Part shown: positions 39,444 to 48,400 of the stretch, one piece after another
Position numbering within the stretch: the first letter of the stretch is position 1
Layout of the letters: each line of letters begins with the position of its first letter
Program-made: the position numbers
From: an uncultured bacterium
GTDB taxonomy: Bacteria; Hydrothermota; UBA3073; NMUJ01; CBEVQO01
Direction: 5' to 3'
Assembly (NCBI GenBank): GCA_965552055.1
Contig: CBEVQO010000002.1
Coordinates: 288,001 to 352,000, forward strand
DNA: 64,000 nucleotides

Positions 39444-42400
39444 TTACATGTTATTGTTTCTTTTACACCATCAATTTTATGAATCTCATCGATTACCTTT
39501 TTGGCAATCGCAGTAAAATCTGCACCTCCCATAGAAACAATTAAATCGAAGGGACCCGTTACAGCATCGACATGCAGGACTTCTTCCATCTTCTGAAGCT
39601 CGTCCATAACTTTCCTTGCCTTACCTGCCTCCACCCTTATTAAAACATAAGCAACGGCACGCATAAAACCCCCTAAAACTCCCTAAATTCCCTCTTTCTC
39701 AACATCGTTAAATCAATATCGCCTGTCATAGGATTTGGTATTAAGCCCCATTCTTCCATACATGTGGCACCTATTATCATCTCAATCTCCCTTCCATGCT
39801 CATCCCTTCCTATTTCTTCAATGGGATACGCTTTGACATCAAACTCAAGACCATCAATCGAACAAAGTAAAATACACGCTTCTTCTATTTCATAACTTTT
39901 ACCTCCAAGTCCCACTTCAAAAGGTTTTATTTTAAATTTTTTATCGGAAATGAGCTCTTTTTTAATATAAGAGCGCATAGAACCCGTATCAAATAGAGCA
40001 TAAACTTTCTTATCACCCACTTTTATTTCTTTAAATACTCTCATTTTTTTCGAATAATTCCAGGGATATTTTTTCCTGCTCTTTATAAGCTGCCAATCTT
40101 TTCAGCAACAAATCAAAATTGACCTTATGTCCATCAAATTCCGGTCCATCAACGCACGCAAATTTCGTCTCACCGCCAACCTCTACTCTGCACGCCCCAC
40201 ACATGCCCGTCCCATCAACCATTATTGGATTTAAACTAACTATAGTTTTCACTCCAAAGGGTCGAGTAACATCGGCACATACTTTCATCATTATAGTGGG
40301 ACCTATGGCTATCACCCTGTCAATCTTCCTCCCGCTTTCGAGCAACTCTTTTAAAACATCGGAAACAAAACCCTTTCTTCCGTAACTCCCATCATCAGTT
40401 GTGATGTAAACTTCATCCGATACTTTTCTTACCCAATCTTCCAATATTAAAAGTTCTTTAGTCCTTGCCCCGATTATTGAAATAATTGTATTGCCCTTCT
40501 CTTTGAGTGCCCTGATAATAGGATAAAGGGGAGCAATACCAACTCCTCCACCTACTCCTATCACAGTACCAAAATTTTCAATTTCCGAGGGTCTGCCAAG
40601 GGGTCCAATAACATGTGGTATCTCATCACCCTCATTAAGACAGGTACCTAAATATCTCGTAGTTTTACCTACTTCCTGAAATATCATTGTAAAAGTCCCC
40701 TTCTCTTTGTTCGCATCCACAATGGTCAAAGGAATCCTTTCACCTTTCTCATGAGCAATCACAACAATAAATTGTCCAGGTAAAGCTTTTTCCGCTATAT
40801 ACGGATTCTCAACTTCAAAAAGCTTTATACCGGGAGCCAGCTCCTCTTTTTTCATTATCCTATTCATGACTTCACATTATACATAGAATACAGCTTTGCA
40901 AACAAAAATTTTAAAATAATTTTTCCGGATTCTTAATGCAAATTCCCACACCGCATTCTAAACTTTCGTATGCCACACGCAAATAGGGCAATAATCCCGC
41001 AGTTTTATAAATCTCTATCGGTCGCGTAAAATTGAGTGAAAAATTAAAACCAATTCCCCTTTCTGCTCCATCTGAATTATTCAAAAAACAGCAATCAAAA
41101 CCAATTTCAGGATAAATATTCAGGAAATAATTAAATCTCCTCGAATAAAAAAGTCTTAACATCTTAACATTTTCATATTCATAAATTGCAAAATTTACAA
41201 AATTTTCCTTGCCGGTATTTATTTCTATAACTTTCAGATAGGGGATATTCTCTGACAATCCGAAATTAAAAAAATTTAATCCAAGTTTAATAATAATCAA
41301 TGTCATGCTCCAGAATTTCTACTCTTCCATCGTTTTCTATAAATTTTTTCAGTTTCTCGAACAATGCCGATAAATTTGGAGGTCCTGTATCAACGGCAGC
41401 TATTGTAATCTGACAGAAATTCCAGGAATTATTTGGCTCTTCACGAATGGAAACATTAAATCTGTTCCTTATCTTTTGCATCAAACTTTTTATAACTCTT
41501 CTTTTATCCTTCAAAGAAGCGCTATAGGGGATTATAAGTGCCAATCTCAGTACCCCTACCGTCATATGGCAATTTCCCTCTTCTTTTCAACAATTTCATA
41601 TACTTCAATAATATCACCTTCTTTAATCTTGAAATTATCACTCAATCCTATTCCGCACTCGTATCCTTCTAACACTTCTTTTACATCTTCTTTGAATCTT
41701 TTAAGTGACGCTATTTCCCCATCGAATACAACTTCTCCATCTCTTCTAACTCTTGCTTTGGCATTCCTCACGACTTTACCTGAAAGCACATAACAACCTG
41801 CTATCCATCCTACATTCTTTATCTTAAAAACTTTGCGAACTTCTGCTTTGCCGAGCTCCTGTTCCTCGTATACAGGTGGAAGCAGTCCTGCCAGCACTTT
41901 CTTTATATCTTCGAGCGCATGATAAATTATATCGTAAGTCCTTATCTCTACTCCTTCTACTTTTGCAAGCTCCTTTGCTCTTAATTCGGGTTTCACATGA
42001 TAACCTATTATCACCGCGTTCGATGCCTTACCAAGAAGTACATCGCTTTCTGTAACAGAACCCACTCCCCTGTGTACAATTTTTACTTTAACATTTTCAA
42101 CCTGCACTTTCTCGAGTGAATCACAAAGGGCTTCCACCGAGCCAGCTGTATCACCTTTCACTATAACTTTTAACTCCTCAGCTTCACCTGCTGTTAAGCG
42201 CCTGTGAAATTCTTCTAAACTAACCATAGACCTTCGTGTCTCCACCTGTAATGCCTCTCTTCTTTTGCGTGCTAATTCTTTTGCTTCATCTTCCGACTCA
42301 CAAACTCTTAATTTATCTCCAACAAAAGGCAAATCTTCAAAACCTACAATTTGACCGGGTTCACCGGGACCTACACTTTCGAGTTCTCTCCCCCATTCAT

Positions 42401-45400: not shown

Positions 45401-48400
45401 TCTCCCGCAATTCACACACAAATCACCTTCCTTGGGCTCCTTCAAATCAAGATATGCTTTAACTTTTACATCACGCTCAATGTTCACACCTGTGTAGTGA
45501 TAATAATCTTCGTTCGCTCCTGTAACAAGACCTTTTCTCCCTTTCAAACTTTCATCAGCATAAACTTCGATATCCTTTCCGATAGGACTTATATATCCTG
45601 CTTCTGCACCGATTATTTCTTTTATCTCCTCAGATGTGGCAGGACGCAGATTCCCTATTTGCCTCAATTTATCTTCACTTACATCATGAGCTCCATCAAC
45701 AAGAACAAAAACAGGTTTACCATCATCTTTTATGAATAATAAACTTTTCATCAAATCTTTATCTTTGACTTTCAAAAATTTTGTTATTTCTTCAACAGTA
45801 CCAGGGACAGGTGTATGAACTTTCTTCAGCTCAGTATCCGGAAGGTCATCATAATTCACTTTTGTGCGTGCAAGTGAATGACTCGCTTTGTATCCGCAAT
45901 TATCGCAAACAACAATCTCATCTTCACCTGCATCGGAACGCACCATAAATTCTTCCGAATGCGCACCCCCCATAACACCAGAGGCAGCTTCTACCACCTC
46001 AACTTCAAGACCGCAGCGCTTGAAAATGCGTAAATACGCTTCCCTGTGCAACTTATAACTCTCATGTAATTCTTCAAAGCTCCTATCCAAACTGTAAGAA
46101 TCTTTCATTATAAACTGACGGGCCCTTAAAGGACCGGCACGCGGACGCTTCTCATCCCTAAATTTCAAATGAATCTGATACCATATTTGTGGCAAATCTT
46201 TATAGGACTTTATTTCCTTTCTCGCTATATCCGTTATGACTTCTTCATGGGTTGGTGCAAGGCACACGGTTCTTCCTGCTCTATCATGTAAACGAAACAT
46301 ATCCTCGCCAAAAGCAGATAATCTACCTGTTTCTTCCCACATATTTGCTGGAGTGAGATTACCGAGTAAAAATTCCTGACCGCCTATTCTGTCCATTTCT
46401 TCCCTTACAATCTGTATTATTTTTCTCAAAACTCTCCATCCGAGTGGCAAATAGTTATAAACACCTGACATCACAGGACGGATGAGACCTGCTTTTAAAG
46501 CAAGCATGTGCGAAAGGGTCTCAACATTTTTAGGCTTTTCTCTCATCGTCGGTATAAAAAATTTACTCCACCTCATCTATCCTAAATATTATAAAAATTT
46601 ACCAGTTTGTCAAGCTAAAAAATTATAGCTTTAAAAAATCCGTTATTACCTTATAACTTACAAAATTTTTGATAAATTCAAGTTGTAGTTTACTTCAAAA
46701 ATTTAAATATTGCCATCAATGTAGCGATTATGATGAACCAGATATTTGTATTCCATGTAATGATATTAAATCTTTTATCCATATCCTGGCGTAACTCATT
46801 TATTCTTTTATCTGTATCTTCACGCATCTCTGTAAATCGACGATTCATCTGGTCAACCAACAGCTCAAATCTCTTATCCAAATGTCTCATTAATTCTTCA
46901 AATCGACGATTTGTTTCTTCTCTCATCTCTGCAAACCTGCGGTTGTTCTCCTCCATCATTTCCTCAAACCTGCGGTTTATTTCTTCAAAACGTCGGTTGT
47001 TCTCTTCTCTCATCTCTTCAAACCTGCAGTTTATCTCTTCAAAGCGTCGGTTGTTCTCTTCTCTCATCTCTGCAAACCTGCGGTTGTTCTCCTCCATCAT
47101 CTCCTCAAACCTGCGGTTTATCTCTTCAAAGCGTCGGTTGTTCTCTTCCCTCATCTCTTCAAATCTGCAGTTTATCTCTTCAAAGCGTGCATTCATATCT
47201 TCCCTCAATTCATCTGTCCTTTTATTTATAGTCTCGATAACCATCTTATAAATGTTTAGCATTTCTGGCGTTAACCCCATATCCATTAAAGTTTCTTTTA
47301 CTATCCTTCTTACATCTTCTTCGGTCAGCGTTTTTGACATATCACCTCCTTATTACTTCTATCAATTCCTTTTTATCATCATAAATTTCTATAACGAGGG
47401 GCATCTTACCGGGTAAAGAGTGTGTAGCGCACGCCAAACACGGGTCATACGCTCTAAACGCCATCTCCACCATATTCAAAATGCCATCATCTGCTTTGCC
47501 ATTTTTTATCAATTTTTTAGCAACTTTCCTTATCGCCATACACATGCTCCCATAGTTAAATGCTGTTGCAACGATTAAATTTACCTTCTGAGCTATCCCA
47601 TTTTCATCTGCAACATAATGATGTATTAAAGTGCCTCTGGGAGCTTCAACGATTCCTACTCCTTCGCCTTTATATTTCGATGGGTCAGGTATCTCCCTTG
47701 CTTTGCCTTCGACAATTTCTGGGTCCTTTGACAGCTCATAAGCCCTTTCTGCTGCATAAATCGTTTCTATCGCACGAGCTAGATGAAATGCCAGAACATT
47801 ATGACATGGTTTCGGAAACTTATCATAAAATCTTTCGTATGCTTCCTGAGCTTTGGGAGTTGCCATGCCACTTGCTACATTAAGACGACCAAGAGGTGCT
47901 GCACTCATCAGCCCACTGTCACGACCATCTTTTAAACCCTTCCAGCCAACTTTACGCAAATAAGGGAATTTCAAATAACTCCAGGGTTCTACATGCTCCG
48001 CAATGTAATCAAGATACTCATGCTCTGTAAATTTACAATATTCTTCACCATCAGGATAAATAACTTTTACCTTGCCATCATAAAAATTAACCTTATCTTC
48101 TTCATCAACAAGTCCTATGTAATATGTTTCAAGATAATACAAATCCTTATCTTCCACTATTTCCTTTAATTCTTTATTTTTCTCAATTGTATCCATCGCC
48201 AGATTAAAAGTAAACTCTGCAAAATCAATTATTTCCTTTGACATTTTCTCTATCTCTTCTCTTTCTTCCGGTGTAGGCTTTTTTGAAACTCCTCCCGGTA
48301 AATTCTGTACGGGATGGGCGGATTTACCTCCGAGAATATCTTCAATCTTCACAGCATTTGCTCTTGCTTTTATAAATGCTTTGCCAACATCAAGACCTGC

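Follow-up and report, generated by a model that had tools for sequence, protein, structure and literature searches.

The classical nusA operon of E. coli has the order rimP-nusA-infB-rbfA-truB, and its Bacillus form carries ylxP (DUF503) before rbfA. RNA decay in Bacillus rests on RNase Y, whose usual partners are RNase J and RNase III, and, to our knowledge, cyanobacteria have no Gre factors. As set out in a recent study, conservation among non-CPR bacteria exceeds 90% for rimM, rimP, and rsmG and is also high for rbfA, yet within CPR each of the four is rare or close to absent (PMC12641178, Mol Biol Evol 2025). According to the same study, der, obgE, and era are frequently gone from CPR as well, whereas lepA, rnc, and rnj are retained, and such repertoires have been unseen outside CPR, with a caveat for Bipolaricaulota and Omnitrophota; neither its text nor its text supplement mentions WOR-3 (PMC12641178). 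The minimal translation apparatus of Mollicutes has lost non-essential ribosome-assembly and RNA-modification genes, and lepA is found in more than 80% of their genomes, which are smaller than 1 Mb, according to passages of PMC4014445 and PMC12641178, respectively. In the small part of the WOR-3 literature covered here, the genome papers do not discuss these gene families.

The genome under study is a 15-contig draft of 2.23 Mb (completeness 97.06%, contamination 0.27%) of an uncultured thermophile with large surface proteins and hydrogenases. Its IVYWREL amino-acid fraction is 0.428, which would predict a growth temperature of about 66 °C by an IVYWREL-based formula. It was compared with a WOR-3/Hydrothermota phylum sample of 61 genomes (this genome, 11 class relatives, and 49 genomes outside the class) and with 10 bacterial control genomes. 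Absences were judged by Pfam, NCBIfam, lineage-specific HMMs, and gene order; as evidence they are negative, resting on profile searches of a draft in 15 contigs. Our main reading, to which we give a probability of roughly 0.8, is that individually dispensable, near-universal factors were really lost, step by step, in this thermophilic lineage, and that the locus described below is the remnant of a class-level operon.

The proS-nusA-infB-DUF503 operon

The window, i.e., the whole 64,000-nt stretch of DNA that was analysed, contains a tight minus-strand operon, proS-nusA-infB-DUF503, at positions 41287-46576. The features of the locus are the following:

46586..46613, minus strand: promoter-like site (TTGACA and TAATAT, 16 nt apart; consensus match), 10 nt short of where proS begins
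44885..46576, minus strand: proS, which opens the operon and encodes a prolyl-tRNA synthetase that includes an editing domain (Pfam tRNA-synt_2b 103, tRNA_edit 72.9, HGTP_anticodon 70.9 bits)
43675..44895, minus strand: nusA, 406 aa, with NusA_N, S1, KH, and HhH (Pfam KH_5 93.8, NusA_N 76.3, S1 44.2 bits)
41562..43682, minus strand: infB (IF2), 706 aa (Pfam IF-2 132.6, GTP_EFTU 129.1, IF2_N 63.6 bits)
41287..41565, minus strand: DUF503 (YlxP-like), 92 aa (Pfam DUF503 76.9 bits, E 1.1e-21)
40911..41306, minus strand: 131-aa ORF with a high content of F, N, and Y and no family match, sharing 20 nt with the end of DUF503

Since all four genes were identified by Pfam on the minus strand, the operon described in the survey's finding stands as to gene order; its end had been placed at 46545, which falls 31 nt inside the longest proS ORF (44885-46576). 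Neighbouring genes overlap by 11 nt (proS/nusA), 8 nt (nusA/infB), and 4 nt (infB/DUF503), and the operon is intact and translationally coupled. The promoter-like site, with 10 of 12 consensus matches and the joint-highest score in the region, is likely the predicted operon start. The DUF503 match (PF04456) covers profile positions 1-87 of 88, at 76.9 bits against a cut-off of 22.4. Intact NusA proteins of the class measure 398-430 aa, and the present one (best class identity 47%) fits this range and carries no RimP-like extension. Downstream of infB, the order is DUF503, the 131-aa ORF, and a flavoprotein-subunit-like gene. Neither truB nor a rimP-leader RNA was found at the locus, and Rfam at the gathering threshold gives one tRNA in the window only.

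The same-order family f2 has the order proS-rimP-nusA-infB-DUF503, with a rimP of 90 aa, family f4 has rimP-nusA-infB-rbfA, and genome G040 has infB-DUF503-rbfA, i.e., the DUF503 slot precedes rbfA. In the genome under study, the rimP slot of the relatives (proS-rimP-nusA) is closed, the proS stop overlapping the nusA start, and the operon has no space for rimP or rbfA. A second operon, rpsP-khpA-trmD-rplS, is contiguous on contig C1, and its khpA stop abuts the trmD start, so that there is no space for rimM. Both operons are thus reduced forms, as had been proposed, of rimP-nusA-infB-rbfA-truB and rpsP-khpA-rimM-trmD-rplS, respectively. Genome-wide, there was no match to Pfam RimP_N or to RimM, and the best RbfA match had an E value of 0.28. 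Lineage HMMs built from class and phylum relatives (11 RimP and 17 RbfA seeds) and run with --max on the six-frame genome gave noise only, with best E values of 0.21 for RimP and 2.5 for RbfA. The claimed absence of the three 30S factors is thus upheld by Pfam and synteny and, for RbfA and RimP, also by lineage HMMs.

It might be argued that these genes lie in the unassembled 3% or so of this 97.06% complete, 15-contig draft, or on unbinned contigs. However, about twenty unlinked genes would all need to fall in gaps, independent class genomes of 89-99% completeness show the same absences, and the expected rimP, rbfA, and rimM slots are closed by overlapping or abutting genes in operons that are both internal to contigs of around 495 kb. 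An assembly or binning artefact is therefore highly improbable.

Two proteins of the locus were compared with RbfA by hhalign: the 131-aa ORF, which has no Pfam match at E<=0.01, was rejected (probability 0.8%), and DUF503 reached 0.06% against class RbfA. The 131-aa ORF may be a divergent copy of a gene of approximately 140 aa that resembles outer-membrane proteins and comes after infB in relatives of the class, a suggestion based on short common strings seen by eye only, the hhalign probability between the two being 0.6%.

Another explanation is non-orthologous replacement, in which the missing functions would be carried by unrelated, lineage-specific proteins such as DUF503 or the unknown genes flanking the nusA operon. 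DUF503 is indeed kept beside infB in this genome and in same-order relatives without RbfA, the operon has genes of about 400, 140, and 215 aa without family match on its flanks in five or six families of the class, and a DUF503 protein appears among the ribosome-associated proteins of Streptomyces coelicolor in part of PMC7157823. Nevertheless, G040 has both DUF503 and RbfA, and in families f3 and f5 neither adjoins infB, which does not make a complementary pattern; the approximately 140-aa family resembles, by eye, a small outer-membrane beta-barrel protein and not an RNA binder, and the approximately 400-aa family is similar to hypothetical proteins only. We consider replacement quite unlikely and infer that the absences are losses.

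Other missing families and the retained core

A phylum-wide search for GreA gave no match in the genome, and the same was true for LepA_C and RNase III. An HMM built from phylum GreA sequences and run with --max had its best E value within 0.43-0.72 (a range that covers the GreA and RecO HMMs); its two top matches look, by eye, like arginyl-tRNA synthetase and GcvH. The translational GTPases found were EF-G, EF-Tu, IF2, and a second EF-G-like protein only, with no LepA, BipA, or RF3. There was no RNB (RNase R/II) and no RlmH, RNase E/G reached a best E value of 0.059, RsmG gave a GidB match of 18 bits, and RNase J was missing. Weak Dus and TrmB matches correspond to PyrD, PcrB, and generic methyltransferases. 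BipA, RecF, RNase E/G, RNB, RNase J, RsmG, RlmH, Dus, TrmB, ScpA, and ScpB were searched in this genome only. Apart from RNase J, all these families (GreA, LepA, BipA, RNases III, E/G, and R/II, RsmG, RlmH, Dus, and TrmB) had been listed as missing, and the model searches of the genome agree. The list is correct for nearly all its items and incomplete, since RecR and RNase J are also missing.

The window itself encodes RNase Y:

32707..34242, plus strand: rny (RNase Y), TIGR03319 651.9 bits against a cut-off of 454; Pfam RNase_Y_N 133 and HD 82 bits, and KH

TIGR03319 matches all 22 class genomes. Among the RNases searched for (Y, III, E/G, J, and R/II), RNase Y is the only major mRNA/rRNA endoribonuclease found in the genome, and it is nothing unusual for a bacterium with RNase Y (652 bits) to lack RNase E/G.

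Concerning the condensins, the SMC hinge model had no match in the genome, although this model is weak in the phylum (most matches between E 1e-4 and 1e-8) and gave no match in the Caulobacter and Bacteroides controls. RecN alone among SMC_N proteins reaches the family cut-off, the others being a weak UvrA (E 0.02) and short ATPases, and five full-length phylum SMC proteins used as queries recovered RecN and small ATPases only. Seven ORFs of at least 600 aa have an N-terminal Walker A motif, none of them condensin-like. No ORF suits a condensin of the SMC-ScpAB or MukBEF type (at least 900 aa, Walker A, coiled coil, hinge, signature, and kleisins), Muk/Mks having been screened by length and Walker A only. 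ScpA was not found, and ScpB reached a best E value of 0.23. The same holds for RecFOR: the recF model scored 29-36 bits against a cut-off of 172, RecO had no match with Pfam or with the phylum-seeded HMM run with --max (best E within the same 0.43-0.72 range), and the 22 class genomes gave only two 21.5-bit Toprim-like matches for RecR. One long collinear RecO HMM match looks, by eye, like an unrelated fragment. The reported lack of SMC, ScpA, and ScpB and that of RecF and RecO are thus confirmed; RecA is kept (484 bits), without the RecF, RecO, and RecR of a RecFOR mediator.

As positive controls, Era (369 bits), RecN (522), RNase Y (652), Obg (450), HflX (454), and RecA were readily detected. 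Der was read from domain content, i.e., a 409-aa frame with two GTPase domains. The essential core is kept and comprises Era, Der, Obg, HflX, IF2, NusA, EF-G, EF-Tu, TrmD, RNase Y, RecA, RecN, and omega.

Omega had been reported absent, a claim refuted by synteny and a phylum-relative seed: a 78-aa rpoZ is located at C3:244176-244412 between gmk and coaBC (Guanylate_kin 158.6 bits upstream, DFP 203.4 bits downstream). Its Pfam RNA_pol_Rpb6 match is below the gathering score (14.5 bits, E 0.036, cut-off 26), and phmmer with the omega of G012 (39 bits in Pfam) as query against the six-frame genome gives E 1.3e-4. The protein is 41-42% identical to the class candidates, and a five-sequence omega profile, which owes part of its signal to two Pfam-positive omegas, finds 28 omega chains among RNA polymerases of solved structure (best E 6.8e-6). 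By these criteria, omega is present and was missed by Pfam; of the 32 omega matches in the phylum, 17 score below the Pfam cut-off. Therefore, the argument that small proteins are within profile reach fails for at least one item, and the omega case proves that small, fast-evolving proteins of this lineage can escape the models.

The question then is whether other small proteins (GreA, RecO, RecR, ScpA, ScpB, and RlmH) are likewise present and have diverged past sequence profiles. Pfam missed omega, which only synteny and the phylum-relative seed recovered, many phylum omegas fall under the cut-off, and the phylum SMC hinge matches are weak too. For GreA, RecO, RecR, ScpA, and ScpB, no class-level seeds were available because copies are undetectable throughout the class, and very divergent class-wide copies are conceivable on sequence evidence. 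Against this, the seed and synteny approach gave nothing for RimP, RbfA, RimM, GreA, and RecO, and no long ORF has SMC architecture. Moreover, the RecO, LepA, and RNase III models score between E 1e-10 and 1e-70 wherever present in the phylum, so that an abrupt class-wide fall to nothing would be unusual. Hidden orthologues are thus unlikely, if more plausible than replacement.

Distribution of the missing families in the class and phylum

The distribution in the phylum sample was as follows:

RbfA: none in the genome; 5/11 class relatives; 48/49 outside the class
RimP: none; 5/11; 44/49
RimM: none; 0/11; 27/49
GreA: none; 0/11; 26/49
SMC hinge: none; 0/11; 25/49
RNase III: none; 3/11; 22/49
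RecO: none; 0/11; 47/49
LepA_C: none; 7/11; 24/49

The survey's finding had counted GreA in 0/22, RNase III in 5/22, and the SMC hinge in 2/22 class genomes; in the 11 of 21 relatives rechecked, the counts are 0/11, 3/11, and 0/11. RbfA and RimP do occur in class relatives, as stated, and the nested pattern agrees with the claim that some losses are class-wide and others more recent. GreA, RimM, the SMC hinge, and RecO are gone in all 11 class relatives, and RecR in all 22 class genomes; LepA, RNase III, RbfA, and RimP are gone from some families within the class. The loss of RimP is the latest, given that the sister family of the same order still has it. The notion of a 'universal' set is only partly right: near-universal families are missing, but GreA, RimM, SMC, RNase III, and LepA are each lacking in about half of the 61 genomes, and the class has in addition lost RecFOR and, in part of its members, RbfA and RimP. 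Among the control genomes, GreA, RNase III, and RecO each matched 9/10 and RNase E/G 7/10.

In the stepwise loss that we favour, the class-level arrangement would have been proS-(rimP)-nusA-infB-(DUF503)-(rbfA), and a clean deletion of rimP and rbfA would have produced proS-nusA-infB-DUF503. Genome-wide, the factors lost would comprise RbfA, RimM, and RimP; LepA and BipA; RsmG, RlmH, TrmB, and Dus; GreA; SMC-ScpAB; RNases III, E/G, J, and R/II; and RecFOR. In model bacteria, loss of such factors has mainly cold-sensitive or conditional effects. At about 65 °C, RNA may be less prone to kinetic folding traps, which would weaken the need for these factors. The Thermus and Thermotoga controls keep RbfA, RimM, RimP, and LepA, and therefore heat alone is no explanation.

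A bolder proposal, which we regard as rather doubtful, is that a thermophilic, 2.2-Mb, non-CPR clade carries out 30S assembly, rRNA maturation, rescue of backtracked RNA polymerase, chromosome compaction, and RecA loading without any canonical factor (RbfA, RimM, RimP, LepA, BipA, RsmG; RNases III, E/G, J, and R; GreA; SMC-ScpAB; RecFOR). In that case, high temperature would allow its ribosome and polymerase to manage by themselves, or these tasks would have passed to lineage-specific proteins not described before (e.g., DUF503 or the unknown genes around the nusA operon). If true, the clade would offer a naturally minimal system in which to study these processes, separate from CPR and Mollicutes.

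Comparison with known systems

The locus resembles the classical nusA operon in that nusA and infB are adjacent and coupled and DUF503 directly follows infB, as in the Bacillus form; it differs in that rimP, rbfA, and truB are not at the locus and proS is joined to the front by an 11-nt overlap. Like cyanobacteria, the genome has no GreA/GreB homologue, and the control Synechococcus elongatus also lacks a greA model match; unlike in cyanobacteria, this lack coincides with that of many other factors. As in Bacillus, there is RNase Y and no RNase E/G, but RNase J, RNase III, and RNase R are absent. The genome shares with Mollicutes the lack of non-essential ribosome-assembly and RNA-modification genes, whereas it belongs to a 2.2-Mb thermophile and has no LepA. 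Finally, the loss pattern resembles that of CPR/Patescibacteria in the lack of rimM, rimP, rsmG, and rbfA, yet differs from it, since this 2.23-Mb, non-CPR genome has Der, Obg, and Era but neither LepA nor RNases III and J.

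The proS-nusA-infB-DUF503 operon and its counterparts in class relatives

The window corresponds to positions 288001-352000 of contig C2 in a draft genome (G000) of 2,226,318 bp and 15 contigs, estimated to be 97.06% complete and 0.27% contaminated. The following features were located around the nusA operon:

Ending 10 nt before the proS start: promoter-like site TTGACA-16 nt-TAATAT, consensus match
44885-46576, minus strand: proS with editing domain (563 aa, Pfam)
43675-44895, minus strand: nusA (406 aa, Pfam)
41562-43682, minus strand: infB, encoding IF2 (706 aa, Pfam)
41287-41565, minus strand: DUF503 gene (92 aa, Pfam 76.9 bits)
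40911-41306, minus strand: ORF without family match (131 aa), overlapping the DUF503 end by 20 nt

The four operon ORFs run head to tail, with successive overlaps of 11, 8 and 4 nt. The promoter-like site is one of the four top scorers in the region and the only one just upstream of proS, and an Rfam scan of the window found no leader RNA and a single tRNA. DUF503 is an uncharacterised family; one table lists a DUF503 protein with the ribosome-associated proteins of Streptomyces coelicolor (PMC7157823).

The NusA search finds its locus in 21 of the 22 class genomes, among which the G000 protein is isolated (best identity 47%). Thirteen of these 21 loci were fetched and their flanks annotated, yielding these gene orders:

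Same-order family f2: ~400-aa gene, proS, rimP (90 aa), nusA, infB, DUF503
Class relative G064: proS, rimP (78 aa), nusA, infB
Class relative G040: proS, nusA, infB, DUF503, rbfA
Class family f4: rimP, nusA, infB, rbfA
Class families f3 and f5 and genome G050: proS, nusA, infB, then unknown genes of ~140 aa and ~215 aa

According to these orders, the G000 operon is therefore a doubly deleted form, devoid of rimP and rbfA and with no spare space at either junction. The main rival explanation is that orthologues of a few small proteins persist in the genome in a hidden form. For RimP and RbfA, HMMs rebuilt from 11 and 17 class and phylum sequences, respectively, and run unfiltered against the six-frame translation of G000 gave only noise (best E 0.21 and 2.5). 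Neither do ProS, NusA and IF2 carry an N- or C-terminal extension in which a fused domain could be hidden, as they agree in length with their counterparts in relatives. With the junctions closed and the lineage HMMs silent, the loss of rimP and rbfA from this operon, as proposed in the survey's finding, stands. The same is true for rimM in a second operon, located on contig C1, where rpsP (88 aa) and khpA (81 aa) are contiguous with trmD (235 aa) and rplS (114 aa), rnhB and a UPF0102 gene coming next. There is no slot for rimM between khpA and trmD, since the stop of the former abuts the start of the latter, and the RimM model PF01782 found nothing in G000.

Two proteins of the nusA locus were considered as RbfA candidates and rejected, namely the 131-aa ORF as a divergent form (no Pfam match, hhalign probability 0.8%) and DUF503 as a relative (0.06%). 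The 131-aa ORF was not assigned to the ~140-aa post-infB family of the class either, the family HMM giving no match and hhalign 0.6%; short strings are alike by eye only.

The flanks of the operon in class relatives (loci L050-L062) hold conserved unknown genes. The ~400-aa gene precedes proS, or rimP in family f4, and infB is followed by the ~140-aa gene, outer-membrane-protein-like by eye, and the ~215-aa gene. The ~400-aa and ~215-aa genes have homologues elsewhere in G000, on C5 (E 1.7e-165) and C6 (E 3.4e-24), respectively, and an Atlas search with the ~400-aa gene located 5' of proS in relatives returned hypothetical proteins only. In the window itself, a 216-aa protein (46690-47340, minus strand) sits between hydrogenase genes and the proS promoter; NNRRFEE(I/M) coiled-coil repeats make up most of it, its C-terminus is hydrophobic, and its sole Pfam match is sub-threshold and apolipoprotein-like. 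A 123-aa retropepsin-like ORF (39673-40044, minus strand) with a weak Peptidase_A2B match (21.2 bits) is flanked by an AsnC-type gene and a flavoprotein-subunit gene, and a single ORF of 6191 aa occupies 5178-23753 on the minus strand. The genome holds 192 ORFs of at least 650 aa, which is unusual for 2.2 Mb.

Genome-wide profile searches and the omega subunit

The genome-wide absences were revisited with NCBIfam models where the survey had used Pfam, and 14 control genomes served as positive controls. No match was obtained in G000 for GreA (TIGR01462), RimP_N, SMC hinge, RNase III (TIGR02191), RecO (TIGR00613), LepA_C, ScpA, RNB or RlmH, and the best E values for RbfA, ScpB and RNase E/G were 0.28, 0.23 and 0.059, respectively. 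Against G000, HMMs derived from the GreA and RecO sequences of the phylum gave only noise, and no match resulted when the 638-645-aa proteins that carry a GreA domain in phylum relatives served as queries.

Several weak matches were traced to other proteins: a GidB (RsmG) match of 18 bits lies inside an FkbM methyltransferase, the weak Dus matches are PyrD (DHO_dh 219 bits) and PcrB, and the best TrmB match (E 0.008) falls on a generic methyltransferase.

In many phylum relatives the GreA domain is arranged as the C-terminal part of a larger protein. This protein has 638-645 aa in G024, G041 and G017 (loci L015-L017) and up to ~815 aa in other phylum families, and its N-terminal region is large and of unknown kind.

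For omega, which the survey had counted among the missing genes, an orthologue was indeed hidden, outside the window:

C3:244176-244412 (L072:1177-1413), plus strand: rpoZ, encoding omega (78 aa)

This gene is flanked by gmk (Guanylate_kin 158.6 bits) and coaBC (DFP 203.4 bits), and an omega candidate follows a gmk-like gene also in the class relative G060 and in the phylum relatives G012 and G005. In a phmmer search of the whole six-frame genome, the protein matches the Pfam-positive omega of G012 with E 1.3e-4, and it is 41-42% identical to weak omega candidates of the class relatives G060 and G015. With a best E of 6.8e-6, a five-sequence omega profile recognises 28 omega chains from RNA polymerases of solved structure. 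The Pfam model by itself gives 14.5 bits, under its cut-off, and a related-locus search with the single G000 protein found no relative. The absence of omega was thus an error, exposed by gene order, relatives and the profile match, and the case warns in practice that gene order has to be checked when profiles fail to find a small protein.

Regarding RNA turnover, RNase J was not found in G000. RNase Y is present in all 22 class genomes, and in G000 it is encoded in the window:

32707-34242: RNase Y (652 bits)

It is the only major endoribonuclease found in this genome, in searches that covered RNases Y, J, III and E/G and the RNB family.

Translational GTPases, SMC-like ATPases and the RecFOR module

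The only translational GTPases among the GTP_EFTU matches are EF-G, EF-Tu, IF2 and a 643-aa EF-G paralogue; the other matches are Der, Era, FeoB, MnmE and a weak, below-cut-off dynamin-like protein in the window. The full GTP_EFTU listing of G000 includes no LepA, BipA or RF3. An EF-G subfamily model gives the 643-aa GTPase (C2:229073-231004) a score of 774 bits, and for this reason it was rejected as LepA or BipA.

The SMC_N matches are RecN (522 bits), UvrA and short MADS3-like ATPases, and five full-length phylum SMC proteins used as queries revealed no orthologue in G000. A screen for ORFs of at least 600 aa with an early Walker A motif returned seven, five being UvrA, an EF-G-like protein, a MacB-like transporter, an AAA_13 ATPase and a dynamin-like protein, and the remaining two are unannotated and only 688 and 740 aa long. 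The AAA_13 ATPase (773 aa, C3:113984-116305; 146 bits), rejected as a short SMC, belongs to a restriction island, with a DNA methylase on one side and a ResIII helicase on the other.

Five ATPases of 330-430 aa were rejected as RecF, since the recF model gives 29-36 bits vs a cut-off of 172; their best likeness is to the anti-phage AAA family MADS3, far under that model's cut-off. These MADS3-type ATPases are paralogous and are distributed over C1, C3, C7 and C8 (loci L038-L042).

The era neighbourhood, checked for recO, contains a response regulator, Hsp20 and Lon instead. Across the 22 class genomes RecR gave only two Toprim-like matches of 21.5 bits, inside ~690-aa proteins. RecR is missing too, and therefore the whole RecFOR module is gone, although RecA is kept (484 bits).

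As for other GTPases, a limited Walker-A/TKxD motif screen of G000 caught a single SRP-family member, FlhF (C1:475470-476522, minus strand; 207.6 bits, cut-off 174), and no Ffh- or FtsY-like ORF passed this screen. The window also has a low-GC block (52298-61015, minus strand; 28-30% vs ~36% elsewhere). Three genes of this block encode dynamin-like GTPases, of 699 aa (Dynamin_N 62 bits), 541 aa (35 bits) and 588 aa (69 bits), and a further ORF of 818 aa is without family match.

Distribution and probable meaning of the losses

Profile matches in one 61-genome phylum sample (G000, 11 class relatives and 49 other genomes)
Gene; G000; class; other phylum
RbfA; none; 5/11; 48/49
RimP; none; 5/11; 44/49
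RecO; none; 0/11; 47/49
RimM; none; 0/11; 27/49
GreA; none; 0/11; 26/49
SMC hinge; none; 0/11; 25/49
RNase III; none; 3/11; 22/49
LepA_C; none; 7/11; 24/49 (21 above cut-off)
Omega (Pfam, E<=0.01; counts limited by model sensitivity); none; 2/11; 30/49

Thus, half of the phylum is already without GreA, RimM, SMC, RNase III or LepA, in combinations that differ between phylum families. This distribution shows repeated loss of these genes across WOR-3/Hydrothermota. The class of G000 added the loss of RecFOR and, in part, of RbfA and RimP; among its families f4 kept most, and G000 and f5 least. The order of the losses is read from taxonomic nesting only.

The genome keeps Era (369 bits), Obg (450), HflX (454), RecA, RecN and RNase Y, as well as Der, MnmE, IF2, NusA, TrmD, KhpA and RNase HII. 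The lost genes are those whose deletion is tolerated in model bacteria or has mainly cold-sensitive or conditional effects. Because genes of this kind are lost and those essential in the models are retained in G000, we consider, with a probability of about 80%, that the pattern reflects real, stepwise gene loss in a thermophilic lineage. The IVYWREL amino-acid fraction (0.428 over 1,438 long ORFs) would translate by formula into roughly 66 °C. Heat alone is an insufficient explanation, since the control genomes of Thermus and Thermotoga keep RbfA, RimM, RimP and LepA. The survey's list of absences was largely right, apart from omega and with RecR and RNase J to be added, and its interpretation largely holds.

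LepA, RbfA, RimM, RimP and RsmG are usually counted as bacterial core, and the finding shows which "universal" genes nature can do without. Their use as completeness or phylogenetic markers in this phylum calls for caution. The lineage offers test cases for how rRNA matures when RNase Y is the sole major endoribonuclease found, for transcription without Gre factors and for recombination without RecFOR.

A literature search over titles and abstracts of a limited collection found no report of this pattern in WOR-3. Neither a paper on the WOR-3 isolate sy37 (PMC12285271) nor a study of 181 WOR-3 genomes (PMC12542636) takes up these genes in the passages searched, where the subjects are physiology and metabolism. 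A 2025 study that compared over 30,000 genomes describes strongly reduced sets of ribosome-biogenesis factors as peculiar to the candidate phyla radiation (CPR), while making a reservation for Bipolaricaulota and Omnitrophota (PMC12641178); WOR-3 is mentioned neither in its text nor in its text supplement. What we describe is a notable lineage-specific loss of core genes and not a new kind of system. Compared with CPR, the reduction is comparable but its composition is different, and it occurs here in a thermophilic WOR-3/Hydrothermota class of ordinary genome size.
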